A DNA stretch of 64,000 bases. It comes from Escherichia phage Gostya9. Position numbers and translations under genes: made by a program. The notes beneath the pieces were generated by a model, which ran no database searches, was not told the origin of the DNA, and worked only from the letters and a program-made list of their open reading frames with translations. Below are positions 25,588-50,663 of this stretch, in pieces. Within the stretch, counting starts at the first letter, position 1, and each line of letters opens with the position of its first letter. Where the stretch lies: sequence record NC_047979.1; one strand, given 5' to 3'.

Positions 25588-25602
25588 ATTAAAATATTTA
25601 CA

Positions 25603-25893: not shown

Positions 25894-25923
25894 TTGGTTT
25901 CCCTCTCATTAATTTATATAAAT

Positions 25924-25952
25924 ATTATAGCAATAAATAAGAGAGAAAGCAA
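25924..25952 (-). promoter_or_regulatory. sigma70-type early promoter
   Basis: TTGCTT-17-TATAAT on minus strand. Confidence 0.65.
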
Positions 25953-25967
25953 ATGAATTTTTAAACT

Positions 25968-26043
25968 TGGTGCGGGATACGAGAGTCGAACTCGTGTCTA
26001 CTGGTTGGAAGCCGGTTATTCTAGCCGCTGAACTAATCACGCA
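25968..26043 (-). tRNA. tRNA, tentative Gly (UCC)
   Basis: CCA + acceptor + T-arm GTTCGACTC; anticodon loop CTTCCAA; hand-folded. Confidence 0.5.
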
Positions 26044-26053
26044 TTAATTTGGC

Positions 26054-26131
26054 TGGCAGGGGATATTGGATTTGAACCAATGATCTCGACTTCAAATGCC
26101 GTAGCTTTAGGCCAAGCTAAGCTAATCCCCA
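26054..26131 (-). tRNA. tRNA, tentative Gln (UUG)
   Basis: T-arm ATTGG-TTCAAAT-CCAAT; anticodon loop ATTTGAA; unpaired 1-72 as in tRNA-Gln. Confidence 0.5.
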
Positions 26132-26137
26132 ATTGTT

Positions 26138-26231
26138 TGGCAGAAGGTAGTGGATTTGAACCACTGATCAGGATTTCAGAGACCTCGGCCTTAACCGACT
26201 TGGCTCAGGTTCTTCAAGGCGCTTACCTTCA
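26138..26231 (-). tRNA. tRNA-like element with canonical 3' half; 5' boundary and anticodon unresolved
   Basis: CCA, acceptor 3' strand and T-arm GGTTCAAATCC are clear; D-arm GCC-AAGTCGGTTAA-GGC present but acceptor closure is ambiguous; overlaps 3' end of ORF 26168..26377. Confidence 0.3.
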
Positions 26232-26377
26232 TGATCTACTCGAATGACTCCGCATCCTTCGCAAACCACAACTGCACCATAACCTTCTTTGACTTCGGCT
26301 TCTGTAATCAGACCAGATAAGTCACCAGTATCTCTGCCCCACATATCAATGGAGCATTGTTTGCAGAAATCAGCCAT
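26168..26377 (-). CDS. small zinc-ribbon protein (uncertain)
   Basis: 69 aa with CKQC..CEGCG; C-terminal tail overlaps a tRNA-like element. Confidence 0.35.
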   Translation of the reverse strand: MADFCKQCSIDMWGRDTGDLSGLITEAEVKEGYGAVVVCEGCGVIRVDHEGKRLEEPEPSRLRPRSLKS

Positions 26378-26379
26378 AA

Positions 26380-26607
26380 TTAATCCTTATTACAAGTGGT
26401 AGAGAGGATGGTACGATCGGAGATCCAACCGCCAGTGTAAGCACCATTGACTTTATATTCAGTCAAAGTACCGTGACCACGAATAGCGAAAACTGTTAGG
26501 GTTTTCGTGCCCCCATAACCATCTTTAACAGTTACGGTACAATCTAATGATGTGCCGATAGTGCAGCCAGCTAAAGTCAGAGCAGCAATCAATACTAAGT
26601 ATTTCAT
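26380..26607 (-). CDS. small lipoprotein
   Basis: 75 aa; signal peptide with lipobox LAGC. Confidence 0.5.
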   Translation of the reverse strand: MKYLVLIAALTLAGCTIGTSLDCTVTVKDGYGGTKTLTVFAIRGHGTLTEYKVNGAYTGGWISDRTILSTTCNKD

Positions 26608-26630
26608 GTTGTTATCCTTGTTAAGTTAAT

Positions 26631-26703
26631 TGGTGCATCCTCAGGGAATCGAACCCCAATCGTAAAGTTCGTGGCTTTACATTCTTTCCATTGAAATAAG
26701 GAC
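26631..26703 (-). tRNA. tRNA, tentative Arg (ACG)
   Basis: CCA + acceptor GCGTCCT/AGGATGC; anticodon loop CCACGAA; hand-folded. Confidence 0.4.
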
Positions 26704-26711
26704 GCAATATT

Positions 26712-26788
26712 TGGGGTGGCTAGTGGAATTCGAATCCACATAGGCCTGATTCACAATCAGGATCATTAACCAATTATGATATAGCCAC
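26712..26788 (-). tRNA. tRNA-His (GUG)
   Basis: perfect 7-bp acceptor, T-arm GTGGA-TTCGAAT-TCCAC, anticodon stem CCTGA/TCAGG with loop TTGTGAA. Confidence 0.6.
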
Positions 26789-27011
26789 AATTGAAAACTC
26801 GCAGGGTTAGCGAAACCATCCTCAATTAGCATGTCTAGAATACTAATCAAGTTATCTCCTATTGCATGCAGCTCAAGACGAGTACGAATTTTCAATTGTG
26901 GCGGCTCTCCGAAACTCTTCTATTCTAGTCCCAGAAGCTTACTCCCGAACGCATGTCGGGGAAGTCTTTCCAAGCGCACCAAATAGCACCGTTACACTTT
27001 GAGCCATTATT

Positions 27012-27106
27012 TGGAGGTAGGTAAGGGGATCGAACCCTTACACCGTATCACTACGATCAACCGATTTCAAGTCGGAGTCCAGCGCCAGCCGTTGGATTGA
27101 CCTACC
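27012..27106 (-). tRNA. tRNA-Ser (UGA), type II
   Basis: 95 nt; perfect acceptor GGTAGGT; anticodon loop CTTGAAA; long variable arm. Confidence 0.5.
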
Positions 27107-27118
27107 ATATAAATTGTT

Positions 27119-27209
27119 TGGCGGAAGAGGAGAGATTTGAACTCTCAAGCCGTTTTACCAGTCAGCCACTTTCCAAGCGGTTTTCGTCGCCAATTCGATT
27201 TGCTCTTCC
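27119..27209 (-). tRNA. tRNA-Ser (GGA), type II
   Basis: 91 nt; perfect acceptor GGAAGAG; anticodon loop TTGGAAA; long variable arm. Confidence 0.5.
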
Positions 27210-27321
27210 AATCATAAGATGATGCCTCTATCACGCCAGGCAGTTACGCCTCGCTGGGATTCGAACCCATTAAAACAGCTCAACCGAGATAGTAGGTTTA
27301 ATTTACTCTGACCATCAAATT

Positions 27322-27398
27322 TGGTGCGTGACAAGGGATTCGAACCCTCAAAACCCGACTTCTAGGGACGGTATGTATGCCAATTCCATCAATCACGC
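27322..27398 (-). tRNA. tRNA, anticodon unresolved (loop CCUAGAA)
   Basis: CCA + acceptor GCGTGAT/GTCACGC + T-arm AAGGG-TTCGAAT; anticodon stem has one mismatch. Confidence 0.45.
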
Positions 27399-27406
27399 GT
27401 ATTTTG

Positions 27407-27477
27407 TGGAGAAAGAGGGAGTTGAACCCTCGTCTTCTGCGTGCAAAGCAGATGTTCTACCATTAAACTATATCCCC
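27407..27477 (-). tRNA. tRNA-Ala (UGC)
   Basis: anticodon stem TCTGC/GCAGA with loop TTTGCAC; G3-U70 wobble pair present; CCA not encoded. Confidence 0.55.
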
Positions 27478-27714
27478 AAATTCTTTAGTTTACTAAGGCT
27501 ATTAGCTCGGCGTAACTACAGCACCTTCGCTTCGAGCGGAAGGAACCGCGTCATCTCGCAAACCCGATACACTATTCAGTTGCCGCTGAATCTAGTGGAC
27601 TAATCTAGAACTTCTCCCGAGTCGTAGGATCGTGCTTTTTGGCAGCCAGTCCTAGGTCGAGCTAATACCTTAGTGAACTATGATGAGGATTTCTCCCCAT
27701 CAATTTATATAAAT

Positions 27715-27743
27715 ATTATAACAAGAAATTAAGCATCAAGCAA
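27715..27743 (-). promoter_or_regulatory. sigma70-type promoter heading the tRNA / small-RNA unit
   Basis: TTGCTT-17-TATAAT on minus strand; no protein gene downstream before tRNAs. Confidence 0.6.
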
Positions 27744-27761
27744 ATGAGTTTTTCTTGAAAT

Positions 27762-27837
27762 TGGTAGCGGGTTCCAGTACTGCCCTGGACTTACTTAGCT
27801 TATGAGACTAAGAAGAACTCTATGCCTTCCACCCGCA
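27762..27837 (-). tRNA. tRNA, tentative Met/Ile2 (CAU); atypical T-loop
   Basis: CCA + acceptor; anticodon stem CTTAGT/GCTAAG with loop CTCATAA; T-loop GGCAGTA non-canonical. Confidence 0.4.
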
Positions 27838-27843
27838 ATTATT

Positions 27844-27907
27844 TGGTCAGTGCGGCAGGACTCGAACCTGCGACCCGAATCATCCAGGGATCCCACGCTA
27901 CGCACTG
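27844..27907 (-). tRNA. truncated tRNA-like element (64 nt)
   Basis: perfect 7-bp acceptor CAGTGCG/CGCACTG, CCA and canonical T-arm GCAGG-TTCGAGT-CCTGC, but only 29 nt between them. Confidence 0.3.
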
Positions 27908-27915
27908 AAATTTTA

Positions 27916-28263
27916 TTAGTTTAACCGTAAAGTATTATCTACTTCACCATTAATTGTTCGGCATTCCTCTGGGATTGTCGGAGTGGCCTTGTATTCCCAC
28001 CACTCAGCACCATCATATTCCCCACGTTCTAGCCAAGTTCCATCGGCAAACCATACATTACCATAAAGTAATTGTCCACCGTATCCAGAATCATATTCAA
28101 AGTCTAGGTTATTAAGAAAATCCCCAATATCTTCTTCTGTATAACCTAAAGGTAATACCCAAACTTTTTTGTCCCCATAATACCCGAATTCTATTTTAAT
28201 ACACTTAACTTTAGAATTGGTATTTTTTAAGGCGAGTAGCAGCTCTTCTTTAGCATTACGCAT
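27916..28263 (-). CDS. hypothetical protein
   Basis: 115-aa ORF. Confidence 0.45.
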   Translation of the reverse strand: MRNAKEELLLALKNTNSKVKCIKIEFGYYGDKKVWVLPLGYTEEDIGDFLNNLDFEYDSGYGGQLLYGNVWFADGTWLERGEYDGAEWWEYKATPTIPEECRTINGEVDNTLRLN

Positions 28264-28288
28264 AGTATATTCTCATACTGAGTTAATT

Positions 28289-28362
28289 TGGCGCGACCGA
28301 TGGGATTTGAACCCACATTCCCCGTGACAGGGGAGTACCATTACCAAGCCAGCCCCTGTCGC
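28289..28362 (-). tRNA. tRNA-Asp (GUC)
   Basis: anticodon loop CTGTCAC flanked by CTCCC/GGGGA stem; T-arm GGGTTCAAATCCC; CCA encoded. Confidence 0.55.
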
Positions 28363-28371
28363 ATAATTCAT

Positions 28372-28557
28372 TTACTCATATTTGAGTTTTTCAATAGCTG
28401 CATTAAGTTCTTTTAGAGCTTCACGACGTTCTACCTGACCTTGAAGTTCTTCAAGAAGTTCCGCTTTCAGAGTCTCAATAATTTTACCACGAACCTTGAT
28501 ATTATTAATCAGATTATCACGATCAGCTTCTAGTCGAGCAATTGCATGAGTTGTCAT
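28372..28557 (-). CDS. small coiled-coil protein
   Basis: 61-aa ORF. Confidence 0.4.
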   Translation of the reverse strand: MTTHAIARLEADRDNLINNIKVRGKIIETLKAELLEELQGQVERREALKELNAAIEKLKYE

Positions 28558-28584
28558 ATCTATTTCCTCAGTTATTAATGAAAA

Positions 28585-28658
28585 TGGTATCTGTGGCTGA
28601 ATTTGATGTCAGCAATGATAGCTGGTTGGCTACCGGTTTACTTAACTCTACACAGAAT
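28585..28658 (-). tRNA. tRNA, anticodon unresolved
   Basis: CCA + acceptor + T-arm GCTGA..TCAGC; candidate anticodon loop TATCATT. Confidence 0.4.
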
Positions 28659-28659
28659 T

Positions 28660-28740
28660 TGGCGGGCCGTGTAGGATTCGAACCACCAACCCCGAAGGGC
28701 ACGGATTTACAGACCGCTGCAATAGCCATTCTGCCAACGA
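28660..28740 (-). tRNA. tRNA-Tyr (GUA)-like, type II; acceptor closure not confirmed
   Basis: anticodon loop CTGTAAA, variable arm CCC-TTCG-GGG, T-loop TTCGAAT and CCA; no complementary 5' acceptor strand found. Confidence 0.4.
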
Positions 28741-28939
28741 TGTACATTTAAAAGTATTCAAATACTTGTTTAAACACTTTTAAATATGTTTCCAACTTAG
28801 ATAACTATTATATCTAGTTTTAAGGCACTGAGCAAGTCAGATTTTGAAGAATTTGCTCAGTGCTATATTAGTTAGTCGAACTTAGGAGTAACAATTAAAG
28901 AGAATGGGAGTTCGAAAACTTCATCAATTTATACAACTA

Positions 28940-28969
28940 TTATACCAGAAATTTAAAGCAAAAGGCAAG
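28940..28969 (-). promoter_or_regulatory. sigma70-type promoter (weaker -35 TTGCCT)
   Basis: TTGCCT-18-TATAAT on minus strand, upstream of a tRNA pair. Confidence 0.5.
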
Positions 28970-28998
28970 TACATTTTTAAAAATTCTGTTCGGAGGAG

Positions 28999-29205
28999 CT
29001 AAACTCCAGATTCTTCAGCCAAGTCTAGACTAATAAGAGTTATAGCCATAATTGCTGCACCGTGTTCTTTTTCTCCGGTGTTTTTAGCAGAGTCTATAAT
29101 ACCCTTAATCTGTTCGTAATAACTTTTTACTTCTTGTTCAATGCCCGCCTCGGCTATCATGCCTTTAGTCATGAGTCGTTGCATGGTAATTTCACGGTTA
29201 GCCAT
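28999..29205 (-). CDS. hypothetical protein
   Basis: 68-aa ORF; start overlaps stop of an upstream unlisted small ORF. Confidence 0.4.
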   Translation of the reverse strand: MANREITMQRLMTKGMIAEAGIEQEVKSYYEQIKGIIDSAKNTGEKEHGAAIMAITLISLDLAEESGV

Positions 29206-29365
29206 GATGTTTCTCCAGCTTCATTTTTAATAGTTTACAGATGAAATCAACGTCTTCATCCGTGCCTAAGTCTCTATCCCCAAGGGTCGCCTTGAAGTTT
29301 TTCGTTAGTTCCATAAGAATAACTTCCCTAGAACGACGTGTTGGCGGAGGTGGATGTCTATACAT
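29199..29365 (-). CDS. small Pro-rich protein (about 55 aa)
   Basis: ATG after AAGGA RBS; stop overlaps next start (ATGGCTAA); below ORF-track cutoff. Confidence 0.3.
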
Positions 29366-29380
29366 CTTATTTCCTTAATT

Positions 29381-29455
29381 TGGTGGGTCGGAGGAGAATC
29401 TAACTCCTACTCGTTAGCTTATGAGGCCACCGCTTTAACTTTAAGCTACCGACCC
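29381..29455 (-). tRNA. tRNA-Met (CAU) family
   Basis: perfect acceptor GGGTCGG/CCGACCC, T-arm AGGAG-TTAGATT-CTCCT, anticodon loop CTCATAA. Confidence 0.5.
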
Positions 29456-29461
29456 TATGTT

Positions 29462-29550
29462 TGGTGGAAGAAGTGGGAATCGAACCCACAAGGCTATATT
29501 TCAAACCGACAGATTAGCAATCTGCTGCAATACCGTTATGCTATTCTTCC
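29462..29550 (-). tRNA. tRNA-Ser (GCU), type II
   Basis: 89 nt; perfect acceptor GGAAGAA/TTCTTCC; anticodon stem GCAGA/TCTGT with loop TTGCTAA; T-arm GTGGG-TTCGATT-CCCAC. Confidence 0.55.
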
Positions 29551-29565
29551 GAATTTATAAGATAT

Positions 29566-29594
29566 ATTATATTAGAAATTTAGCTTCATAGCAA
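29566..29594 (-). promoter_or_regulatory. sigma70-type promoter driving tRNA-Ser/tRNA-Met
   Basis: TTGCTA-17-TATAAT on minus strand. Confidence 0.6.
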
Positions 29595-30090
29595 GAAAAT
29601 TTTTCAAGTTTTCGGTAGACATCTCATCCACATCTACAGGAGAAACAAACCCATTTAATTGTCTAGCAAATTTTTCACCGGCAGGATCATTATCCCCAAC
29701 AGCTACCAATTTAAAAGGTAGTAATTTCAATTGCTTTAACAACGCTTTTCCGGGGGAAGAACCCAACATTGCTAGGGCAGGATAACCAGCATTATGTAAT
29801 GCTACAGCCTTAAATACAGATTCAGCAATCAATACTACTTTTTCATCCCCACTGAGAGTTTCTAGCCCCCATACACACTGTGCGGTAGAATAAGTAAAAT
29901 ATCTAGCTTCAGAGGGGCACTTACCATGACCTTTTGGAGCAGAAGGATTATAAGTCTGATAGCCTCTCAACATTCCAGAGAAGTCATACAACGGGACTGT
30001 TAGCCATCCTTCCGGACTTAACCAGCAATGATATTTATCTGTATCAAACCCTCTGGATAAGAGATGTTCTGTTAGTTCATCAACAGTCAT
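29572..30090 (-). CDS. hypothetical protein
   Basis: 172-aa ORF. Confidence 0.5.
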   Translation of the reverse strand: MTVDELTEHLLSRGFDTDKYHCWLSPEGWLTVPLYDFSGMLRGYQTYNPSAPKGHGKCPSEARYFTYSTAQCVWGLETLSGDEKVVLIAESVFKAVALHNAGYPALAMLGSSPGKALLKQLKLLPFKLVAVGDNDPAGEKFARQLNGFVSPVDVDEMSTENLKNFLAMKLNF

Positions 30091-30124
30091 ATTAGATTCC
30101 TCTCTCTCTCAAATTTATAAATAT

Positions 30125-30153
30125 ATTATACAGAGAATTTAGCATTCAAGCAA
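30125..30153 (-). promoter_or_regulatory. sigma70-type early promoter
   Basis: TTGCTT-17-TATAAT on minus strand. Confidence 0.65.
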
Positions 30154-30249
30154 TTGAATTTTTAAACTTTTTAGTGGAAAAATCTCAAGGCATTTAATGG
30201 CAGCACGTTGTTGCTGTAATAAGAGTATATGGTTCTAAAGAACCAAATA

Positions 30250-30284
30250 ATAAAGCCCTGCGCTCTCCAGGGAACGCAGGGCTT
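30250..30284 (-). terminator. rho-independent terminator
   Basis: AGCCCTGCG..CGCAGGGCT stem followed on minus strand by TTATTATTTGG; second small hairpin TGGTTC-TAAA-GAACCA adjacent. Confidence 0.55.
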
Positions 30285-30307
30285 ACTTCGAATATTACGT
30301 GTAGGTA

Positions 30308-31258
30308 TTACTTGTTACGCATATCCATAATCATCTGGCCATCGTAACCAGTGCCAACCACAGTCTGAGGTACACCACCTTGATACTTCTGAGCACGAAT
30401 CATTTCAACTTCTAGTTGCTTCCAGCGAATCATCTCAGGAGTAATGGTACGTTGCAGAGCGGCGTTAGCTTCAGCCTCTTTCTTAGCTGCGTACAGTTTA
30501 GCATCTGCATCACGTTCGTTTGCAATAGCTTGGTTGTTACGAGCTTCACGATCTGCTTCTGCTTGTTTAACCTTCTGCTGTGCTTCTTGTTCAACACGAG
30601 CCAACTCAGCTTTCGCAGCATTAACTTGTTCTTCACGAACTTTGGTATTCTGTACCTGTTCCATGATTACAGGCGGCAAAGTAATATCCTGAAGGAACAC
30701 TTGCTTAACTGTGTAACCATAAGGGCGTGCATACTCTTCAACTTCCTGTTGAATTGCAGTTTGTAATTGAGCCTGAATTTTAGCATCAAACAAATCTTGT
30801 GCTTTAGGAACAGACTTGCCGAACTCACGAATAGTGGATAACAGCTTCTCTGTTACGTACTTATCTAGAGCCTGATCCTGAGTACCTGCGTTAATACGGT
30901 TAATCGGTGCCTTAGAACCATCAAACTGCAACATAACAGTCAGATCAACAGTGGATTTAAACTTATCCTGACTAGGAACCTGAAGTTTATCTAATTTTAC
31001 CGCAATGTCTTTTGTACTAAAAGTATCAAAAGATGCAAATGGGTTTACAATATGGAAACCCGGTAATACTGGATTAGGGTCTACTTTACCCAGGAATGTT
31101 TGAGTTTTAACCGTACCATCAGAAACAATAGTATATGAATTAAAAGCTAAAATCAAGCCTGCTAAACCAACTACAGCACCAACTACGATGCGCTTAACAG
31201 CGCGAATGTTCTTTTGTTCGGTGGTCAACGGCTTGTCAGATTTGTTTTTGCTAAACAT
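30308..31258 (-). CDS. SPFH/band-7 (prohibitin-like) membrane protein
   Basis: 316 aa; N-terminal TM, SPFH-like core, Ala/Gln/Glu-rich coiled-coil C-terminus. Confidence 0.6.
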   Translation of the reverse strand: MFSKNKSDKPLTTEQKNIRAVKRIVVGAVVGLAGLILAFNSYTIVSDGTVKTQTFLGKVDPNPVLPGFHIVNPFASFDTFSTKDIAVKLDKLQVPSQDKFKSTVDLTVMLQFDGSKAPINRINAGTQDQALDKYVTEKLLSTIREFGKSVPKAQDLFDAKIQAQLQTAIQQEVEEYARPYGYTVKQVFLQDITLPPVIMEQVQNTKVREEQVNAAKAELARVEQEAQQKVKQAEADREARNNQAIANERDADAKLYAAKKEAEANAALQRTITPEMIRWKQLEVEMIRAQKYQGGVPQTVVGTGYDGQMIMDMRNK

Positions 31259-31294
31259 ATAGTTCCTTTACTTTTGGTTATGATGAATGAAAAT

Positions 31295-31371
31295 TGGTAC
31301 TCCGTAAGGGATTCGAACCCCTAATCAAGAACTTAGAACGATCTTGCCTTATCCAATTTGGCCAACGGAGC
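31295..31371 (-). tRNA. tRNA, anticodon unresolved (possibly Arg UCU)
   Basis: CCA + acceptor GCTCCGT/ACGGAGT + T-arm GGGGTTCGAATCCC + D-arm GCC..GGC; anticodon stem has one mismatch. Confidence 0.5.
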
Positions 31372-31899
31372 ATGAATCTGGGCTTTAATTAGTTCTTCTA
31401 CAAGTGAAGGGTTTAGTTTAAACCATTCTCCTGTGGTGTTGTAGTCTTTAAATGTTCTATGCACTAGGTTCTCTACTGAATAAGCATCTTCACAGAAGAA
31501 CCATCTGAGTATACTGAAGGATTTTTCCGGTGAGAAACAATTTGCTTCTTCTAACCTGCGAGCAGGTTCTATGGACTTACCTACTTTTATAAACTCAGGG
31601 CATTTGGAATCTTGCATTATGTAGACAAAACCTTCCCTAGACCTTAACTTGCTAACCACCGTACAATCACGATATTTTAATAGGTTGATAGCTGCTAGTC
31701 TGAAATATTGTCGCAGTAAACTTTTTTGTTTACTTGGTCTTAGTTTTGAGAATGCTAGTTTATCTTCTATTTTTAGTAAAGCCACTTGATTTACTAAACT
31801 GTAAGTAATTTTGAACCATTCATTACATTTAGGGATCAGCCCTAAATTAATGGCTTTGGTTATTTGTCCTATGTCATAGGAGTTATCTCTCATATACAT
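31333..31899 (-). CDS. T5orf172-domain / GIY-YIG-like protein
   Basis: 188 aa; GFVYIM..FIKVGKS..P..R..E pattern typical of the T5orf172 family as recalled; 3' end overlaps the tRNA, so the exact stop needs checking. Confidence 0.5.
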   Translation of the reverse strand: MYMRDNSYDIGQITKAINLGLIPKCNEWFKITYSLVNQVALLKIEDKLAFSKLRPSKQKSLLRQYFRLAAINLLKYRDCTVVSKLRSREGFVYIMQDSKCPEFIKVGKSIEPARRLEEANCFSPEKSFSILRWFFCEDAYSVENLVHRTFKDYNTTGEWFKLNPSLVEELIKAQIHAPLAKLDKARSF

Positions 31900-32408
31900 A
31901 TTCCTGTGTCGATATTTTTAAGAACTCTCGTAAAAACTCTTAAAAATACAGACGATACCGGGAGAGTCATAAGTCTCACTCATTAAGTATTTCAAGACAA
32001 AATACAGTAACGTCTATTATTTTCCAGTTTAAGTCAAGGTGACTTAGTGGTTATGCCCTGCGGTATACTGGGGACTCGGTTAGGTTAGGGTCATGACTTC
32101 CTACCTTTTTGCTGCTACTCAACAGGAGTTATCGCGAATTACCTGTGCTATTGTGCACCATTAGTGGCATCTCTCATGCCAGCATTTCCCACTTTGTGGA
32201 TAGTTTGAAAAACTACTCCGATATGGAGGGAGAACTTCACTATCCTAGAATACCTTCTAAAGTTCTTCTTTAGCCTGGACATAGTTAAATCGTAATAAAA
32301 CTATTCAGCAGACTGGTTGGTTAGCCTGGAACCAACTACCGCGTGGTTTAGGCAGTGCGCAACTAACCTCGGAAGCTTTTACGTTAAAAGCACCAGTTAT
32401 CCAGTTCT

Positions 32409-32480
32409 TACCGATCGTAGGATTCGAACCTACATCTTCCACCAGTTACGGCTTGATAATACCGTTTATACTAGATCGGC
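32409..32480 (-). tRNA. tRNA, anticodon unresolved
   Basis: acceptor GCCGATC/GATCGGT, T-arm GTAGG-TTCGAAT-CCTAC; CCA not encoded. Confidence 0.45.
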
Positions 32481-32556
32481 AGTGTTACTACATAAGTGAT
32501 TTCCACACCCCACTATTTATAACTTAGAGAAGAATTACTCTCTAATTTATGAATAT

Positions 32557-33281: not shown

Positions 33282-33749
33282 TTAAGTTTTAGTGACAGCA
33301 GGCTTATAAAATGTATGCCCCTTAATCTTAGTTGTTTTCTTAAACTTCTTTGTCCAGTACGGTTTATCTTTACCACTATGGAAGTATAAGGCTCCATGTG
33401 TAGGATCTTGTGGTAAATCAACGTAGTATATCACTCTAGCTAAATTCTTGGCGGTTTGCCAAGCCTCATCGGTTTTATCAACTTTTGGTCTCTTAGATAC
33501 CCAAGAGAACTGGTTAGACTGATATACTACTTTACAGTAGGAATCTGGGAATTTACCGGAGTTTACACGGTTTTTAGTAACATGTGCAATCGCCGTCATT
33601 CCCTTTATGCCCTCACCACGACTTTCGAAATAGATATTTTTAGCAATGCAATCTATTTCTTTTGCATCGTGCGATGCCTGACTACTAAAGCTGAAGGTAA
33701 GGGCAGCTACTAAAAGCAAAGCTGCCTTCATTCTTTTTACTCCTGCCAA
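33282..33749 (-). CDS. secreted cell-wall hydrolase (SleB-like Hydrolase_2 family)
   Basis: 155 aa; signal peptide; AKNIYFESRGE..AIAHVTKNRV..YCKVVYQSNQFSW pattern. Confidence 0.6.
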   Translation of the reverse strand: MAGVKRMKAALLLVAALTFSFSSQASHDAKEIDCIAKNIYFESRGEGIKGMTAIAHVTKNRVNSGKFPDSYCKVVYQSNQFSWVSKRPKVDKTDEAWQTAKNLARVIYYVDLPQDPTHGALYFHSGKDKPYWTKKFKKTTKIKGHTFYKPAVTKT

Positions 33750-34054
33750 TCGTATTCAATACGATTGGGGTTTTCTTTGTATCCCAAGTCAAGCAAATCA
33801 TTACGCATAGTTTGCTTAGCTACGGGATTCGAGGTTACTAGTACCACTTTCTTTGGTCTCTGCCCAAATTCTAAGAGTAAACGAAGAATTTGATAACCTT
33901 CCATACCATCTACAGCCAAATCGTTGTCGAAATAAACAAAATGGCCAGTGGTATCAGTCTTATTCAGAAACTCAACAGCGGCTTCTGGGGTTCGAATGAT
34001 AATGTCCATTCCGTGAAGATTACGCACATCATCAATCAAAATATGAAAAGTCAT
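33737..34054 (-). CDS. hypothetical protein
   Basis: 105-aa ORF. Confidence 0.45.
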   Translation of the reverse strand: MTFHILIDDVRNLHGMDIIIRTPEAAVEFLNKTDTTGHFVYFDNDLAVDGMEGYQILRLLLEFGQRPKKVVLVTSNPVAKQTMRNDLLDLGYKENPNRIEYDWQE

Positions 34055-35440: not shown

Positions 35441-36142
35441 TCAAATTTTCATTTTTTCGATCATAGCTGCAACACAATAGCTCTCAACTAAGGCATCGAA
35501 TGCTGGGTCGTGCTTAACCGGATATATCCCGTAACGAATGGTGTCCATCTTCTCCATTTTAGCTATTGCCCAGCTAATACCTTCGGTCTCTAGAGCCTTA
35601 TAACTGTATCCAGCTTGCATCCAGAGATTACGAAGGGATCGAACATTACCCAAATTCCAGAATTTCCACGGAACTATTTCTTCATTGGTTCCAGCATGGA
35701 AAGTGTTTGCAGAGTAGATAGTCATATCAAACTCTGGGCCATTGCCATAATACAAAGCATTTTCGCCTAGAGCCAATTCCATAATGTTTTTAGCCATAGA
35801 ATAAGCTGCATAGTTAGAGCCGAGCTTATTAGTACAGTGATGTTTACCATCTTGAAAAGCAATCAGCTTTGGATTACGCTCGTTCATAGCTTCCATAATG
35901 TGGAAAGCAGACGGACTATTTTTAGCTTGATCCATCCAGAATGCTAGAGTAGATGCTGTAACTTTGGCACCAGAATTAAGCTGATCCTGCACATCCAAAG
36001 TAACAAACACTAGATCAGGGTCTTTATCAATTCCGTGCATAGCCACAAAAGCGAAAGAAGGCATTACGATATGAGTAGTACCACAATCTCCCGGAGTTCC
36101 TAGAGATTCAATATCTAACATACCAAATGGTTTTACTTTCAT
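35441..36142 (-). CDS. DEDDh-type 3'-5' exonuclease-like protein
   Basis: 233 aa; MLDIESLG (Exo I-like D-x-E) and HDPAFDA (Exo III-like) motifs. Confidence 0.5.
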   Translation of the reverse strand: MKVKPFGMLDIESLGTPGDCGTTHIVMPSFAFVAMHGIDKDPDLVFVTLDVQDQLNSGAKVTASTLAFWMDQAKNSPSAFHIMEAMNERNPKLIAFQDGKHHCTNKLGSNYAAYSMAKNIMELALGENALYYGNGPEFDMTIYSANTFHAGTNEEIVPWKFWNLGNVRSLRNLWMQAGYSYKALETEGISWAIAKMEKMDTIRYGIYPVKHDPAFDALVESYCVAAMIEKMKI

Positions 36143-38493: not shown

Positions 38494-39267
38494 TTATACA
38501 AACTCATACGCCGGGAACTTAGGTGAACGAACTCTATTACCTATAGTCGCTGTGGAACACCCCAATGCTCTAGCTGCTGCACTCATACTAACGTATTCCA
38601 CACCATCCACACGTACTGCCTTAAAGTGAGTAGGAATGGGTGTCTTTCCCTCTCTAATACTTTCTTGGTACTGCTTAGAAGCCTGAGACATCTTGCTCAG
38701 AGCCTCTTCAGTGTGCTTCTTCCCATAAAAGGAGTTATTCTCACCTGTTCGATCCCTACAACTATTACAGTACTCCCCATTAGTGTTATTAAGGGCTAGT
38801 AGGGAACCACAATCAATACATGTTTTTGAGCGAGTAGATACTCCTCCCTTCCAGTTATAGTTTAGCTCGCCTGGTCTACTCCACCGGGCTTTTCTTTCTT
38901 CTTTAGATAAGGACGCTATATGCTTTCTAACACTCTCACTAATTCTCTTAATAATCTCCTCTCTTCGAGGATTATTTGTGAGATTATCCCCGCCACCGTA
39001 GCTACCTATGTTGAACTCTGCTCCCAGCTCCTTAGCCCACTCTTCTTCTAGTAAGAACTGCTGATCTACTTCTTCAGTAGTATCTAAGATGTCAAATACA
39101 AAGTCTTGCTTTCCGGTTTTATCATAAGCTCTCTGTAGAAAAGCGTTATGGTGGTTCCCCTTACTTAGTGAGTAAAAATGTTTACGCTTTCTAGCCTCAA
39201 TATCCTTAGTCGATCCAACGTACTGTCTTCCCGTAGATAGCTGAGTTATACTATAGATGTAAATCAT
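38494..39267 (-). CDS. GIY-YIG homing endonuclease with NUMOD-like repeats and C-terminal HTH
   Basis: 257 aa; N-terminal IYIYSITQLSTGRQYVGST..R..H (GIY-YIG), repeated N..GG..NSFYGKKHTEE modules, C-terminal HTH; start overlaps thyA stop. Confidence 0.7.
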   Translation of the reverse strand: MIYIYSITQLSTGRQYVGSTKDIEARKRKHFYSLSKGNHHNAFLQRAYDKTGKQDFVFDILDTTEEVDQQFLLEEEWAKELGAEFNIGSYGGGDNLTNNPRREEIIKRISESVRKHIASLSKEERKARWSRPGELNYNWKGGVSTRSKTCIDCGSLLALNNTNGEYCNSCRDRTGENNSFYGKKHTEEALSKMSQASKQYQESIREGKTPIPTHFKAVRVDGVEYVSMSAAARALGCSTATIGNRVRSPKFPAYEFV

Positions 39268-47543: not shown

Positions 47544-47576
47544 AGCCAGGTTGCTAGTCGACCTGGCTTTTATTTT
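47544..47576 (+). terminator. rho-independent terminator after nrdD
   Basis: GCCAGGT..ACCTGGC hairpin followed by TTTTATTTT. Confidence 0.6.
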
Positions 47577-47578
47577 AT

Positions 47579-47607
47579 TTGCTTTCAGCTAAAAATATAT
47601 GTATAAT
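47579..47607 (+). promoter_or_regulatory. sigma70 promoter
   Basis: TTGCTT-17-TATAAT followed by conserved leader and GAGGAGG RBS. Confidence 0.65.
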
Positions 47608-47636: not shown

Positions 47637-48017
47637 ATGGCTTTAAAACCGTATATAGTGGAGTCTACGTGTGGTGGTTTCCACCTGGGTGTGGATGATA
47701 TTGCTGAGGCTGTCTTTGCTGCCACAGGTGATTACTCTCATATAGAGGGTGCTGGATACCCCACCGTTATTGGTGATTGGGTGGAAACAAATCTAGATGT
47801 ATCGCCTTATAACCCGTATTGCTTGTTTGATGAAGACAGAGATGAAGTAAAATGTAATCTTGAATTTGTGTATAATAGAGTGTTAAAAGTATACCAACGT
47901 AGTCCCGAGGGATACGAAGATATTACTTGGAGTATTAAACAGTATCTTAAAGATGTATACTCTAGTTTTTCTGACGAAGGCCTAGAAACAGTTGCAGTGG
48001 AGTTTAATAATGACTAA
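47637..48017 (+). CDS. hypothetical protein
   Basis: 126-aa ORF with strong RBS. Confidence 0.5.
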   Translation: MALKPYIVESTCGGFHLGVDDIAEAVFAATGDYSHIEGAGYPTVIGDWVETNLDVSPYNPYCLFDEDRDEVKCNLEFVYNRVLKVYQRSPEGYEDITWSIKQYLKDVYSSFSDEGLETVAVEFNND

Positions 48018-48243
48018 GAATGTGAAACACCTTAAATATCGTTTAATCTATAACGGACGTATGGAAACTGAAGAGCTAGCTCAATTAGCTATTAACTCTA
48101 ATGAGGTTATGGTGCGTGCGCTAGCAATTGAAAAGTTGCGGGCTTCTTATGAAAGTCGTATTATGGAACTAGAGGAGAAACTTTATGGACTTCTCGAAGC
48201 CGAAGCTAGAAGCAATTCAGAGGACAGGCCTACTAAGCAATAG
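48010..48243 (+). CDS. hypothetical protein
   Basis: internal ATG after GTGGAG RBS; overlaps upstream stop. Confidence 0.4.
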   Translation: MTKNVKHLKYRLIYNGRMETEELAQLAINSNEVMVRALAIEKLRASYESRIMELEEKLYGLLEAEARSNSEDRPTKQ

Positions 48244-48311: not shown

Positions 48312-49139
48312 GTGCGTAGATTAATTATTATTAGCGGTGCAGGTTTGAGTGTTGAAAGTGGTGTACGAGCCTTCCGTACTGATACTGCTAGTGGTAAAGC
48401 ATTGTGGGATGATTATGATCTAGAAGAAGTATGTAATATTCATGCCTTTCGTGGTAATTTTTATCATAAAACTCATATGTTTTACAACAAGCGTCGTGAA
48501 GAGTTAGAAACTGTTGAACCCAATCTTGCACACTTGCGTATTGGTGAATGGCATAAGAAATACCAGGGTCAAGTAGTAAACTTGACTACCAACGTTGATG
48601 ACCTTATTGAGCGTGCTGGCGTTCCACATAGTGACATTCTGCACATTCATGGGTATTTAAAAGAGGTTGTTGTAGCTGATAGCTACAATAGTAGCAATAA
48701 ACGAGTTATTGATGTTGGGTATAGCTCTATTGACCCAGAGGATTATAAATGGGTTAAACCTAATGTAGTCTTCTTTGGTGAGCATGCTCCAGCGTACGCA
48801 GAAATGTACAATATTTTTGATGGTATTACCAGTCAAGATATGATTATTGTGGTTGGTTGCTCTAACCAAGTAATTAACTTCTACTGGGAATTATTCCCTG
48901 TTCTTAACCGTACTGCTGCGAAACTTATGGTGGTTAACTACTACGATATTACCCTCGCGGCAGAACCAGGCTATCAAGGTATGACTCGTAGTGAGATGTA
49001 CCAACTGGAAGAACGGGGTATTCCTTACTGGGGTAAAGGTGCGGTAGATGCTTTCAGTGACCCTGATTTTATTGCTCGTGTGGAAGCCCATTTAGAGGGT
49101 AGACCTTATATGCCGGGGAACAAATATGTCCATAGTTAA
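48312..49139 (+). CDS. Sir2-family NAD-dependent deacetylase / ADP-ribosyltransferase-like protein
   Basis: 275 aa; N-terminal GAGLSVESGVRAFR matches the sirtuin GAGIS.ESGIP.FR NAD-binding motif. Confidence 0.65.
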   Translation: MRRLIIISGAGLSVESGVRAFRTDTASGKALWDDYDLEEVCNIHAFRGNFYHKTHMFYNKRREELETVEPNLAHLRIGEWHKKYQGQVVNLTTNVDDLIERAGVPHSDILHIHGYLKEVVVADSYNSSNKRVIDVGYSSIDPEDYKWVKPNVVFFGEHAPAYAEMYNIFDGITSQDMIIVVGCSNQVINFYWELFPVLNRTAAKLMVVNYYDITLAAEPGYQGMTRSEMYQLEERGIPYWGKGAVDAFSDPDFIARVEAHLEGRPYMPGNKYVHS

Positions 49140-49308
49140 ATCTGTATGTACACATCCCGATGATATATTTGTATGGGCGGATGGTAGTTGGTGTTATCGA
49201 TGTGAGCTATGGGAAATGGACTATAAATCCGATGACTATGGTGTCATATATGTTGATACGGTTGAGTATGATACGTTCTTAGAAAGGAACAAAAATGGAA
49301 ATAAGTAA
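49126..49308 (+). CDS. small Cys-rich protein
   Basis: 60 aa with C..C..CYRC pattern. Confidence 0.4.
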   Translation: MSIVKSVCTHPDDIFVWADGSWCYRCELWEMDYKSDDYGVIYVDTVEYDTFLERNKNGNK

Positions 49309-49681
49309 TACTCCAATTATTTTTCTAGACATTGATGGGGTGCTTAATTCGAGCATCTCCCATCACCATGCACCTGATGATGAAAAGGTTTTCTTTGGAA
49401 GTGACTGGGTTTTTAAACCGCTTCTCAAGGTTTTTCAGGACTTTATTCGTCCTTCTCCAATAATGATTGTTGGGGTATCCTCATGGTTCTCTGTCAGGAA
49501 TGAGATGGAGAACGTTCAGATTATGACCGGATTAGGTCTTATCGATCGTTTTCTTGGTATAACGGGTTTTACTGGTGGTGGGCTATCTAGAGGTAATTCT
49601 GTTCTTCACTTCGTTGAAAAGCATAAGCTCAAACATTGGTGCTATGATGTATCAGTATCCAACGGTTATAGTCAACGGTAG
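49295..49681 (+). CDS. HAD-like phosphatase
   Basis: 128 aa; HAD motif I FLDIDGVLN at N-terminus. Confidence 0.5.
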   Translation: MEISNTPIIFLDIDGVLNSSISHHHAPDDEKVFFGSDWVFKPLLKVFQDFIRPSPIMIVGVSSWFSVRNEMENVQIMTGLGLIDRFLGITGFTGGGLSRGNSVLHFVEKHKLKHWCYDVSVSNGYSQR

Positions 49682-49783
49682 AACTGGAATAAATCTTCAA
49701 GATTTAAGAGCTGTTAGCTATATGCTAGAATTTAGTCCAGATCTTGAAATGTGTAAAGCTCTACAACAATTTAAGGTGTAAAT

Positions 49784-50212
49784 ATGTTCAATAATGTATT
49801 CTCTAAAGAAGCTAACCCAATATTGGTTAATTTTTGGCGTACTCTTCCAGCCAACCTGTACAATGAGGCTATTAATGCTCTGAAAATATGGTGTGAGAAT
49901 AATGAAATCTCCTTTGCTTTTAAGGATGAGATTGAAGAAGCTCCCTGTATTGGTTTAATTGTGCAGGTAGAGGATGGCTTTGAAGAGATTGTCGGCTGGA
50001 AAGAGTTGGATGAAATGGGATTGGTTTTTGCATTAAACTATAAGCTGTTTATGCCTAATAAACACCGTATTGTTGTTAATTATAAAACCAGTGAATCTCC
50101 TGGTTTTCAAGTTAATGAACATTACGGTTGGTCTTACTCACCGGAAGAAGTAAATGATGGTATCCAAAGACTTCGTCGTTTTGGTTATCAAATTCCGGGT
50201 TTAACTGCCTAA
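49784..50212 (+). CDS. hypothetical protein, tandem paralog A
   Basis: 142 aa; shares EE.PC.G..L..MGL..AL...LF.P and C-terminal GY.IPGL with 50222..50614. Confidence 0.5.
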   Translation: MFNNVFSKEANPILVNFWRTLPANLYNEAINALKIWCENNEISFAFKDEIEEAPCIGLIVQVEDGFEEIVGWKELDEMGLVFALNYKLFMPNKHRIVVNYKTSESPGFQVNEHYGWSYSPEEVNDGIQRLRRFGYQIPGLTA

Positions 50213-50221
50213 GGGGGCACA

Positions 50222-50614
50222 ATGGAACAAGTATATTGGCGTCAGATTGATCCTAGTTTGGTGAAGAGTGCGGAGAAGCTGCTACAACGTTGGTTGGGGG
50301 TAAGACAAGCCTCCTTCACTTTTCCGGAGCAGCAAATAGACGATCCCTGTGTTGGTGTTTTCCTATCAGGCTACGCTAGGGAAGTGGAATTGGATTGGAA
50401 TGAATTGTCTGCTATGGGTTTAATTGTTGCACTAGATTTCTCTTTGTTCCATCCAAGTGGTTTGGCAATATGTCGTGTGCCTGATGACGGTTGTTCGCCC
50501 CATCTTTTACAGGTGGAAGATAATATTTGGGAGTACCCTCCAGATATTCTCAAAGAAGCTAAAGAACAATTAAATCGTGTTGGGATTTATGTTCCAGGCC
50601 TGAATGATGAATGA
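50222..50614 (+). CDS. hypothetical protein, tandem paralog B
   Basis: 130 aa; paralog of 49784..50212. Confidence 0.5.
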   Translation: MEQVYWRQIDPSLVKSAEKLLQRWLGVRQASFTFPEQQIDDPCVGVFLSGYAREVELDWNELSAMGLIVALDFSLFHPSGLAICRVPDDGCSPHLLQVEDNIWEYPPDILKEAKEQLNRVGIYVPGLNDE

Positions 50615-50635: not shown

Positions 50636-50663
50636 TTACCGAGTCATTTTGGCTCGGTTTTCT
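50636..50663 (+). terminator. rho-independent terminator
   Basis: ACCGAG..CTCGGT hairpin followed by TTTTCTC. Confidence 0.55.

Follow-up and report, generated by a model that had tools for sequence, protein, structure and literature searches.

The 64,000-nt stretch of DNA analysed here (the window) belongs to a T5-like phage and is approximately 94% identical to T5 at the DNA level. We confirmed three open reading frames on the plus strand at the coordinates proposed in the initial annotation, namely a Sir2-family gene, a small ORF and a HAD phosphatase gene, which overlap by 14 nt at each successive junction. The gene order is that of T5 (nrdD, T5.100, T5.101, Sir2, T5.104, T5.105, T5.106, T5.107, origin-binding helicase), and the promoter and terminator positions of the operon match those annotated in T5:

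47544..47568, plus strand: terminator-like hairpin past nrdD (10-bp stem, then a T run), upstream operon boundary
47579..47607, plus strand: promoter-like site read from the sequence (TTGCTT, 17-nt spacer, TATAAT)
47637..48017, plus strand: T5.100-like ORF, 126 aa, very acidic (pI 4.1); PHROG 11748, E=1.5e-73
48010..48243, plus strand: T5.101-like ORF, 77 aa from the likely ATG; PHROG 5236, E=2e-44
48312..49139, plus strand: Sir2-family protein, T5.102 orthologue, 275 aa, GTG start; Pfam SIR2, E=6.8e-26
49126..49308, plus strand: small acidic ORF, T5.104 orthologue, 60 aa; PHROG 5116, E=2.8e-29
49295..49681, plus strand: HAD_SAK_2 phosphatase gene, T5.105 orthologue, truncated and frameshifted, 128 aa; Pfam, E=1.2e-13
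49784..50212, plus strand: acidic DUF7415 protein, T5.106 orthologue; Pfam DUF7415, E=4.6e-33; PHROG 2502
50222..50614, plus strand: DUF7415 protein, T5.107 orthologue, tandem paralogue of the preceding ORF; Pfam DUF7415, E=4.9e-29; PHROG 2502
50638..50658, plus strand: terminator-like hairpin at the operon end, matching the terminator annotated downstream of T5.107 in T5

The Sir2 gene sits in an operon bounded by the promoter-like site at about 47579 and by the terminator-like hairpins, the upstream one corresponding to the nrdD terminator annotated in T5. The promoter-like site corresponds to T5P31, an early promoter in the T5 annotation, and, judged from its letters, probably functions as such; a promoter scan missed it because its -35 hexamer matches at just three of six positions. 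The operon is an early one located between nrdD and the gene for the replication-origin-binding helicase, and its previous description as part of a replication module is roughly right. A Pfam search with the T5.100-like ORF found no family. The mechanically called T5.101-like ORF starts at 47992, but the PHROG 5236 match begins only at its residue 8, and the length of T5.101 in T5 (234 nt) fits the likely ATG start given above.

The Sir2 ORF, which carries the ribosome-binding site GAGAGGGA upstream of its GTG start, is 92% identical in amino acid sequence to T5.102 over the whole protein. SIR2 (PF02146) is its only significant Pfam match, scoring 91.8 bits against a cut-off of 24 and covering profile positions 1-178 of 180, and PHROG 2162 is matched with E=2e-119. 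The Sir2 signature claimed earlier (GAGLSVESGVRAFR) is therefore real and far beyond chance, and the profile search suggested as a check of that claim recovers nearly the full SIR2 model. The same annotation had made its assignment depend on the catalytic histidine and the NAD-binding residues, and these are all present. The sequence elements on which this rests, together with two features that set the protein apart, are as follows:

48336..48377, plus strand: NAD-binding Rossmann signature GAGLSVESGVRAFR, residues 9-22 (translation, homologue alignment)
48480..48497, plus strand: FYNKRR, residues 57-62, with the class III Y-x-x-R pair Y58/R61 (CobB alignment)
48585..48605, plus strand: TTNVDDL, residues 92-98, counterpart of sirtuin TQNIDxL (aligned to CobB TQNIDNL)
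48642..48653, plus strand: HIHG, residues 111-114, with catalytic His113 (aligned to CobB HMHG)
48660..48755, plus strand: small-domain insert replacing the zinc ribbon, residues 117-148, without cysteine (CobB alignment, AF2 model)
49107..49110, plus strand: site at which 158 bp present in T5 are deleted (alignment to T5)

Invariance was assessed in an alignment of 77 phage homologues that are 54-84% identical to the window's Sir2. The Rossmann signature conforms to the GAGxSxxSGIPxFR motif, with G9, A10, G11, S13, S16, G17, F21 and R22 invariant. FYNKRR aligns with CobB AFYNARR and shows invariant F57, Y58, R61 and R62; the Y-x-x-R pair recognises the acyl carboxylate and is the mark of class III enzymes in SIRT5 and CobB. 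In TTNVDDL, the asparagine and aspartate of the sirtuin motif are kept as N94 and D96, but glutamine is replaced by threonine throughout the clade (T93, N94, V95, D96 and L98 invariant). H113 and G114 are invariant as well, as are F154, F155 and E157, and the FGE loop KPNVVFFGE is conserved across the phage homologues; the residues lining the acyl-lysine tunnel in sirtuin structures come from this loop and from hydrophobic positions close to it. In total, 43 positions including all catalytic ones are invariant across homologues down to 54% identity, and 848 of the 993 matching phage records cover at least 80% of Sir2. Another common trait is acidity, the pI being 4.6-6.05 in 120/120 homologues with a median net charge of -11.6.

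The best PDB sequence match is CobB (1s5p, E=2.7e-18), with Sir2Af and SIRT5 also among the best. An AF2 model of the ORF reached a pLDDT of 90.2, and Foldseek placed it next to CobB, SIRT5 and Sir2Af1, with a TM-score to CobB of 0.84 (normalised to the target); every one of the best 50 matches is a deacylase sirtuin. With CobB and SIRT5 (PDB 1s5p, 3riy), to which identity is about 25%, the protein shares the Rossmann fold with GAGxSxxSGxxxFR, the Y-x-x-R pair, the catalytic HG, the FGE loop and the N and D of TQNID. Unlike both, it has threonine for glutamine in TQNID, roughly 60 additional residues in the C-terminal region and, instead of the zinc-binding cysteines, an insert for which a beta ribbon devoid of cysteine is predicted. 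The CobB cysteine positions align with alanine or gaps, and residues 117-148 are modelled as beta strands at high pLDDT. Among 120 homologues and the query, residues 114-156 contain no cysteine in 65 sequences, one in 52 and two in four; the Cys4 zinc-binding module of the sirtuin small domain is thus absent from the entire phage clade. In characterised sirtuins these cysteines are structurally required. The phage Sir2 clade derives from class III (CobB/SIRT5-like) sirtuins and is almost confined to phage records. Because the catalytic residues are invariant, the model is confident and the fold is closest to CobB, we consider the protein catalytically competent and infer that it is a working NAD+-cleaving enzyme that passes ADP-ribose to an anionic oxygen nucleophile. 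A literature search for experimental characterisation of a phage Sir2 found none.

The 158-bp deletion removes T5.103, which is present in some relatives and absent in others, so that the Sir2 C-terminus becomes ...YMPGNKYVHS and the C-terminal 9 residues differ from T5.102. Other T5-like phages match all 275 residues, and this altered C-terminal form therefore occurs elsewhere. In the viable phage DT57C, a deletion running through Sir2 leaves merely a 90-aa Sir2-HAD fusion remnant, which indicates that the Sir2 gene is dispensable.

The HAD-like enzyme mentioned in the initial annotation is indeed co-located, and the ORF exceeds the gathering threshold of Pfam HAD_SAK_2 (PF18143), which places it in the HAD fold; its gene, however, is broken in this genome:

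49637..49641, plus strand: junction of a 20-bp deletion (TGGTGTGTGCTGGATGATGC in T5), between TGGTG direct repeats (T5 alignment)
49642..49781, plus strand: intact but out-of-frame HAD C-terminal remnant (AMMYQYPTVIVNGR...QQFKV) (ORF 49575-49781, alignment)

The ORF consists of 116 native residues followed by 12 out-of-frame residues, compared to 168 aa for T5.105. HAD motif I with the DxDG nucleophile (FLDIDGVLN, residues 10-18) is preserved and invariant in 20 sequences, but the acidic pair of motif IV (V-L/I-D-D-A/G-G), present in all 19 other sequences, is deleted, and with the frame shifted after C116 the C-terminal part of the fold is lost too. On its sequence, the ORF 49295-49681 is a pseudogene, inactivated in this genome. 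All phage records among the matches listed keep the 20 bp, since an 80-nt query across the junction spans 100 nt in them and aligns in two pieces; no shared origin of the deletion was found among these records, and the junction has no exact match in IMG/VR. As the C-terminal remnant is otherwise intact, the deletion appears to be recent. The HAD gene is full length in 447 of 471 phage records and partial in SelmaRatti and Shivani.

The small ORF had been described as cysteine-rich. It is co-located and contains three cysteines in 60 aa, but only that of a WCYR motif is conserved among homologues; C8 is unique to the window (tyrosine in T5), and C26 is phenylalanine or serine in other genera. 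With a single conserved cysteine, a zinc finger is ruled out, and a role as a zinc module supplied in trans to Sir2 was dropped for the same reason. Homologues in Erwinia Ounavirinae phages without a Sir2 annotation among the adjacent genes also speak against the latter; across the Demerecviridae, the PHROG 5116 gene does adjoin Sir2. A search of a large protein database with the small ORF gave just five close matches and was uninformative.

A further gene of possible relevance was found by tblastn with the Sir2-adjacent cREC gene of phage FFH2 and lies 14 kb from Sir2:

33737..34054, minus strand: cREC protein (cyclic-phosphate processing receiver domain), 105 aa; Pfam cREC_REC, E=9.2e-15

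It scores 55.5 bits against a Pfam cut-off of 27 and has matches in 492 phage records, chiefly T5-like ones. In the Vequintavirus FFH2, the genes for an Rnl1 RNA ligase, cREC, Sir2 and MazG share a strand, and the opposite one encodes an AAA_33 kinase together with a calcineurin-like phosphoesterase. The order in a Mydovirus is cREC, AAA_33 kinase, small ORF, Sir2, ATP-dependent ligase and then a MazG-like gene, and in a Yersinia jumbo phage a Nudix-cREC fusion directly follows Sir2. HAD_SAK_2 and Sir2 are still linked, in reversed order, on distant T5-like contigs, but the pairing is not obligatory, as the HAD gene is broken in the window and none is annotated near Sir2 in a Sugarlandvirus. 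An apparent association of Sir2 with NMNAT and PnuC in Klebsiella phage K45PH128C2 was rejected because the functions annotated in this record are not those of its ORFs; by Pfam, these encode cREC, a kinase, Sir2, a ligase and a MazG-like protein. In relatives, the companions of Sir2 include genes of RNA-end healing and sealing (Rnl1, cREC, kinase, phosphoesterase and ligase); the window has only cREC and a broken HAD gene. The window's cREC is a possible remote functional partner of Sir2, a link that we infer; it is kept, 100% identical, in DT57C, which lacks Sir2. No homologue of the FFH2 Rnl1 ligase or PNK-like kinase was detected in the window by tblastn, and a heal-and-seal pathway would therefore need host enzymes.

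These gene contexts (cREC, PNK-like kinase, RNA or DNA ligase, MazG, Nudix), together with the cREC gene of the window, favour a role in RNA-end healing and point to nucleic-acid end repair, as proposed for this Sir2 group, typified by SP15, in the part of Iyer et al. 2022 devoted to it (PMC9503650). The most likely single function of the Sir2-family ORF, though at less than even odds, might accordingly be KptA/Tpt1-like removal of RNA 2'-phosphates. In such a reaction, the 2'-phosphate that remains on RNA after cleavage, as when defence nucleases cut tRNA, would attack C1'' of NAD+ and release nicotinamide; the ribose hydroxyl activated by His113 would next attack the phosphate, yielding 2'-OH RNA and ADP-ribose-1'',2''-cyclic phosphate. 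Both proposed steps would parallel the chemistry of sirtuin deacylation. The cREC protein, whose function is itself only predicted, would open 2',3'-cyclic phosphates before Sir2 acts, and the HAD phosphatase would remove a phosphate either from the RNA terminus or from the ADP-ribose phosphate formed as a by-product. As the private 20-bp deletion removes motif IV, this last step would be lost here, and Sir2 would therefore work without its HAD partner. That the zinc-less Sir2 represents a sirtuin-fold analogue of KptA/Tpt1 within a dispersed cREC-Sir2-HAD end-healing set, with which T5-like phages would mend RNA cleaved by host defence nucleases, is a slightly more tentative proposal still. 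The likeness to KptA/Tpt1 would be confined to the proposed function, NAD+-dependent ADP-ribosylation of a 2'-phosphate and then transesterification, and to similar companions (cyclic phosphodiesterase-like, kinase, ligase). KptA belongs to the ADP-ribosyltransferase superfamily, whereas the phage Sir2 is a Rossmann-fold sirtuin without sequence similarity to it; with SIR2 as its only significant Pfam match, it is not a member of the KptA/Tpt1 family but at most an analogue. Several observations count against a KptA-like activity: by sequence and predicted fold the nearest relatives are protein deacylases, the FGE loop is conserved, the acidity of all 120 homologues is unusual for an RNA-binding enzyme, cREC is retained in the Sir2-less DT57C, tblastn found no counterpart of the FFH2 ligase and kinase in the window, and the pairing with HAD is not obligatory.

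An alternative that we regard as possible and nearly as likely as KptA-like activity is a CobB/SIRT5-like NAD+-dependent protein lysine deacylase, probably with a preference for negatively charged acyl groups (succinyl, malonyl). Early in infection, such an enzyme would remodel the acylation of proteins of the host or the phage, and the Nudix, MazG and HAD proteins of relatives would merely dispose of O-acyl-ADP-ribose or ADP-ribose. CobB, Sir2Af and SIRT5 are the best sequence matches, the 50 best Foldseek matches are deacylase sirtuins, the Y-x-x-R pair, catalytic histidine and FGE loop are invariant, and an earlier in-silico study of phage Sir2/CobB proteins, which lists T5, agrees (PMC5107563). 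The only NCBIfam matches are 'NAD-dependent protein deacylase' models as well, but scores of 93-103 bits fall far below every CobB equivalog cut-off of 221-395 (the best being 103.2 bits against 243 for NF001753 and 93.6 against 320 for NF040867). The clade-wide loss of the zinc-binding cysteines and the exchange of glutamine for threonine in TQNID also count against a deacylase, and the recurrent linkage with ligase, PNK-like kinase and cREC would be unexpected for such an enzyme.

Two other explanations seem considerably less probable. The initial annotation had suggested that the protein could manipulate NAD-dependent host processes or counter NAD-depleting defences; we found no supporting evidence for either. 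In a related but broader sense, Sir2 could take part in an NAD+/ADP-ribose arms race, either as an NADase or ADP-ribosyltransferase that shuts down host function or defence, or by processing, together with HAD, phosphorylated ADP-ribose such as ADPR-1''-phosphate from RES-type defences; taken jointly, we consider these options unlikely, and the variant in which Sir2 and HAD act on ADP-ribose-1''-phosphate is more speculative and highly improbable. The idea draws on Serratia phage ChuuTotoro, whose HAD_SAK_2 homologue (38% identical to T5.105) adjoins NAD+ genes, overlapping the start of a Prs-like gene by 4 nt, with a NAMPT-like gene following; this domain architecture is that of the NAD+ reconstitution pathway NARP1 (bioRxiv 10.1101/2024.02.11.579819). 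In addition, some NARP1 operons include an ADPR-1''-P phosphatase, though of a different fold (Macro domain; bioRxiv 10.64898/2026.01.28.702374), and the Yersinia jumbo phage has a NAMPT-like gene 2 kb upstream of its Sir2 gene. However, the ChuuTotoro pair is recognised by domain content only, the HAD-NARP1 linkage occurs in just about three phage records, and neither the Prs-like nor the NAMPT-like protein has a homologue in the window (tblastn); Pfam scans of 30 large ORFs likewise detected no NARP3-type PnuC or NadR. Sir2 moreover uses up NAD+ rather than restoring it, and an NAD-consuming enzyme is therefore no obvious remedy for NAD depletion. The protein shares membership in the Sir2 superfamily and the substrate NAD+ with the defence SIR2 NADases (ThsA, DSR1/2, SIR2-HerA, SIR2-APAZ), but unlike these it is phage-encoded and single-domain, without sensor or partner domains. 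It shows no similarity to them: its fold is nearest to deacylases, PADLOC SIR2 models gave no match at E<=1, and no defence-type SIR2 structure was among the best 50 Foldseek matches. PADLOC retrieved nothing relevant for Sir2, HAD, the small ORF or either of the DUF7415 proteins. Finally, the cluster might be decaying and Sir2 a functionless passenger, as the DT57C remnant, the partial HAD genes of SelmaRatti and Shivani, the frameshift in the window and the variable presence of T5.103 could suggest. This is very improbable given that the Sir2 ORF is intact, that its 43 invariant positions include all catalytic ones, and that Sir2 and HAD are so widely retained (in 848/993 and 447/471 records at the coverage given above).

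The Sir2 gene is already annotated in the T5 records AY543070, AY587007, AY692264 and RefSeq NC_005859; T5.102 (YP_006930.1) is named 'Sir2 (NAD-dependent deacetylase)', and cobB 'putative transferase' in AY587007. Its pairing with a Swiss-army-knife-type HAD phosphatase is already described and interpreted in section 3.7.3 of PMC9503650, where the system is classed as type 3, a 'distinct clade of sirtuins' from phage neighbourhoods predicted to repair RNA (Iyer, Burroughs, Anantharaman, Aravind 2022, Viruses 14:1977); SP15 is a T5-like phage with 93.7% DNA identity to the window. Since both gene and pairing are known, the window adds no new kind of system. KptA-like activity of the sirtuin fold is likewise predicted in the literature; section 3.7.3 is silent on cREC in the same genome and on HAD_SAK_2 beside a NARP1-type pair. 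If the RNA-repair reading is true, sirtuins would gain a nucleic-acid-directed activity, a new catalysis for this fold. T5-like phages, a frequent choice for therapy cocktails and for screens of defence systems, would then possess an overlooked means of countering RNA-cleaving immunity. Should the protein be a deacylase, it would exemplify how a phage rewrites the acylation of host proteins. Compared to T5, the window lacks T5.103 and has the altered Sir2 C-terminus, and compared to the system in section 3.7.3 its HAD partner is inactivated. The sole particular feature of the window is this natural HAD-null allele beside an intact Sir2 gene, which together with the double-null DT57C provides ready-made genetic controls.

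The initial annotation had proposed a Sir2-like gene from a sequence signature, and this was borne out: the ORF carries GAGLSVESGVRAFR, matches Pfam SIR2 over nearly the full profile (91.8 bits, E=6.8e-26) and matches PHROG 2162 with E=2e-119. The observation is real, but the gene is not new, because T5.102 of phage T5, which is 92% identical, is already labelled Sir2-like in four T5 records. Correct as an observation, the finding is unremarkable as a discovery: T5 annotations have included the gene for a long time, and a published paper already describes its pairing with the HAD phosphatase gene and offers a mechanistic hypothesis. New are a private deletion inactivating the HAD partner, the lack of conservation of the small-ORF cysteines, a cREC gene elsewhere in this genome, and the occurrence of the HAD family next to a NARP1-type gene pair as well. 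The three overlapping plus-strand ORFs lie at exactly the coordinates first proposed, in the following setting:

Minus strand: nrdA, nrdB, thyA and phoH
Plus strand: nrdD, a short operon and a replication-origin-binding helicase gene
47579-47607: promoter-like site (TTGCTT, 17 nt, TATAAT) 3' of the nrdD terminator, at the position of an annotated T5 early promoter
48312-49139, plus: Sir2-family ORF, 275 aa, signature at residues 9-22
49126-49308, plus: small ORF, T5.104 orthologue (PHROG 5116)
49295-49681, plus: HAD ORF, a pseudogene with a Pfam HAD_SAK_2 match
49784-50212 and 50222-50614, plus: tandem acidic DUF7415 paralogues downstream of the HAD ORF, each with an internal domain repeat

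A terminator-like hairpin after the DUF7415 pair closes the Sir2 operon. Gene order around the locus is identical in T5 and the window, and the surrounding 3.2 kb are 94.2% identical to T5 DNA over 99% of their length; 441 phage records, mostly T5-like Escherichia and Salmonella phages, match this region. The T5-like phage SP15 is among the best matches to the window. According to the T5 record, T5.107 and the HAD gene resemble ORFs of Aeromonas phage Aeh1.

The top phmmer match in the PDB is E. coli CobB (1s5p, E=2.7e-18), followed by Sir2Af1/2, SIRT5, Sir2Tm and SIRT3. Aligned with CobB, the phage protein matches it in the Rossmann motif, its FYNKRR, TTNVDDL, HIHG and VVFFGE face FYNARR, TQNIDNL, HMHG and VVWFGE, respectively, and the cysteines of the CobB zinc module face alanine or gaps. 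Among 5.8 billion proteins searched, 196 Sir2 homologues were found; none of the best 120 falls below 49% identity, contigs of 100-150 kb carry many of them, and the named ones are phage proteins or unnamed hypotheticals of Salmonella assemblies. The catalytic histidine and the NAD-binding residues are present: in an alignment of 77 sequences (54-84% identical to the window protein) the invariant positions include G9, A10, G11, S13, S16, G17, F21, R22, Y58, R61, R62, N94, D96, H113, G114, K149, P150, V152, F154, F155 and E157. The segment replacing the zinc ribbon contains at most two cysteines in the query and in each of the best 120 of the 196 homologues, and beta strands are predicted there in the AlphaFold2 model, which is of high confidence (pLDDT 90.2, pTM 0.89). 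All 50 Foldseek matches listed from the PDB are deacylase sirtuins, in the order CobB (TM-score 0.84, target-normalised), SIRT5, Sir2Af1/2 and Sir2Tm, with no defence-type SIR2 among them; a PADLOC scan of the ORF gave no match, and its matches to the NCBIfam CobB equivalog models were far under the cut-offs. Judged by its sequence and predicted fold, the protein is a phage-specific, zinc-less offshoot of the class III sirtuins with a full catalytic apparatus. A 2016 paper had already noted the missing zinc site in Sir2/CobB proteins of Vibrio phages and listed T5 as a carrier (PMC5107563).

The co-located HAD-like enzyme of the initial annotation stood only in part, since a HAD_SAK_2 gene does adjoin Sir2 but is a pseudogene. 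Relative to the 168-aa T5.105, 20 bp are gone between TGGTG direct repeats, which takes out V117-G122, the motif IV V-L-D-D-A-G, and shifts the frame. The other 19 sequences of the HAD alignment all keep motif IV, the 20 bp are retained in all phage records among the matches listed, 447 of 471 phage records have the gene at full length, and the deletion junction had no exact match in IMG/VR. The deletion looks recent because the remnant 3' of it is otherwise intact, although an assembly error is conceivable. The small ORF had been described as Cys-rich, and its three cysteines are indeed there, but they are not conserved as a set: T5 has tyrosine in place of C8, C26 is phenylalanine in Epseptimavirus and serine in Erwinia and Klebsiella phages, and only the cysteine in DGSWCYR is kept. 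Homologues of T5.104 adjoin Sir2 across the Demerecviridae and are also found beside the DNA polymerase gene in Erwinia Ounavirinae phages, where no neighbour is annotated as Sir2. Its diverged tandem paralogue in T5, T5.103, is missing from the window through a 158-bp deletion that also alters the final Sir2 residues; all 275 residues are matched in other T5-like phages, and the Sir2 form of the window is therefore not unique. The viable phage DT57C (NC_027356.1) has lost all of Sir2, the small ORFs and HAD: a single 273-nt 'defective' gene (2354-2626) encodes 90 aa in which the N-terminus of Sir2 is joined in frame to the C-terminus of HAD. This fusion explains why PHROG 18062 ('Sir2', 92 positions) matches both proteins and why RefSeq labels T5.105 'Sir2'.

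The neighbours of the Sir2 clade in other phages are as follows. Vequintavirus FFH2 encodes a T4-type RNA ligase 1, cREC, Sir2 and MazG together, with an AAA_33 (PNK-like) kinase and a calcineurin-like phosphoesterase divergent from this set and an ATP-dependent DNA ligase gene 1.3 kb downstream. The Klebsiella Mydovirus vB_Kpn_K45PH128C2 (OY978796.1) shows the order cREC, AAA_33 kinase, small ORF, Sir2, ATP-dependent ligase and MazG-like gene; NMNAT and PnuC labels in this record were discarded, as the deposited CDS coordinates and names (mostly flagged pseudogenes) do not match the actual ORFs. In Yersinia jumbo phage fHe-Yen9-03 a Nudix-cREC fusion directly follows Sir2, with a NAMPT-like gene 2 kb upstream of Sir2. 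On two metagenomic contigs from distant T5-like phages the order is nrdD, HAD_SAK_2, small ORFs, Sir2 and a small ORF, so that the HAD-Sir2 link is kept despite inverted order and HAD identity down to about 40%. Sugarlandvirus has Sir2, with no annotated gene around it that fits HAD by size or name.

A local tblastn search with the FFH2 cREC protein detected a homologue in the window:

33737-34054, minus: cREC protein, 105 aa, 'cyclic-phosphate processing receiver domain' (Pfam cREC_REC PF20274, E=9.2e-15, 55.5 bits against a cut-off of 27)

Matches occur in 492 phage records, which are T5-like for the most part and include 50 from Vibrio phages; Sir2 also matches 50 Vibrio phage records, which were counted separately and may be the same set or a different one. 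The cREC gene is named 'hypothetical protein' in most of the listed phage records. The window and DT57C share a 100% identical cREC protein, yet DT57C has a deletion where the window has an intact, T5-like Sir2 region, which points to a mosaic ancestry of the genome. The same type of search of the window found no homologue of the FFH2 RNA ligase, PNK-like kinase or MazG, of the Yersinia Nudix-cREC fusion, or of the Prs-like and NAMPT-like proteins of Serratia phage ChuuTotoro.

The Sir2 protein has everything needed for NAD+ binding and sirtuin-type chemistry, and we infer that its ADP-ribose acceptor is an anionic oxygen nucleophile. Iyer et al. 2022 (PMC9503650) propose KptA-like removal of RNA 2'-phosphates for the sirtuin clade, in a type of neighbourhood for which SP15 is the example; our literature search turned up no experiments on phage sirtuins. 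We tentatively favour this KptA-like role because genes for ligase, kinase, cREC, phosphoesterase and ADP-ribose processing accompany the clade elsewhere (in Vequintavirus and Mydovirus, which belong to one subfamily and differ in gene order, and in the jumbo phage) and the HAD link persists in the distant T5-like contigs despite a changed gene order, and because the two catalytic steps of sirtuins map directly onto those of Tpt1, going by the general mechanisms of both enzymes. The nucleophile would attack C1'' with loss of nicotinamide, and the adduct would then be attacked by a His-activated ribose hydroxyl. A pair of the Y58/R61 type binds carboxylate in SIRT5 and CobB, and by analogy the invariant pair could bind phosphate here. 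However, the nearest relatives are deacylases and the FGE loop, which lines the acyl-lysine tunnel, is conserved; a CobB-like desuccinylase or deacetylase is almost as likely. Also against a KptA-like role, all of the best 120 of the 196 homologues are acidic (pI 4.6-6.05), T5-like phages apparently lack an RNA ligase and 5' kinase of their own, at least within the window, and the function of cREC is itself just predicted.

A role in NAD+/ADP-ribose metabolite conflict, as first suggested, ranks below both and appears improbable. Its sole positive hint comes from ChuuTotoro (ON287369.1, 6001-9217), where a homologue of HAD_SAK_2, with 38% identity to T5.105, shares 4 nt with the start of a Prs-like gene and a NAMPT-like gene follows, but HAD_SAK_2 adjoins such a pair in only about three phage records. 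The pair has the domain architecture of NARP1, an NAD+ reconstitution pathway, and the arrangement parallels the Macro-domain ADPR-1''-P phosphatase that some NARP1 operons include; the ChuuTotoro HAD may be the HAD-type counterpart of this enzyme of NARP1-AP operons.

The window also encodes two adjacent calcineurin-like phosphoesterases (14733-16129, minus) and an Rv2179c-like 3'-5' exoribonuclease (35441-36142, minus). Enzymes of both kinds act on phosphoester bonds or the ends of RNA and could be relevant to the hypothesis of RNA-end processing. Twelve tRNA genes are clustered at 25339-32481 (minus), one of them (32408-32481) being called as tRNA-Ser with ACT, an unusual anticodon, and are interspersed with T5orf172/MUG113 (31333-31899), SPFH/Band-7 (30308-31258) and Toprim-like (29572-30090) ORFs. 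Homing-endonuclease-type ORFs include two of the HNH_3 type (13250-13786 and 22939-23448, both minus) and a GIY-YIG/NUMOD3/I-TevI-like one (38494-39267, minus) directly downstream of thyA, the end of which it overlaps by 4 nt.
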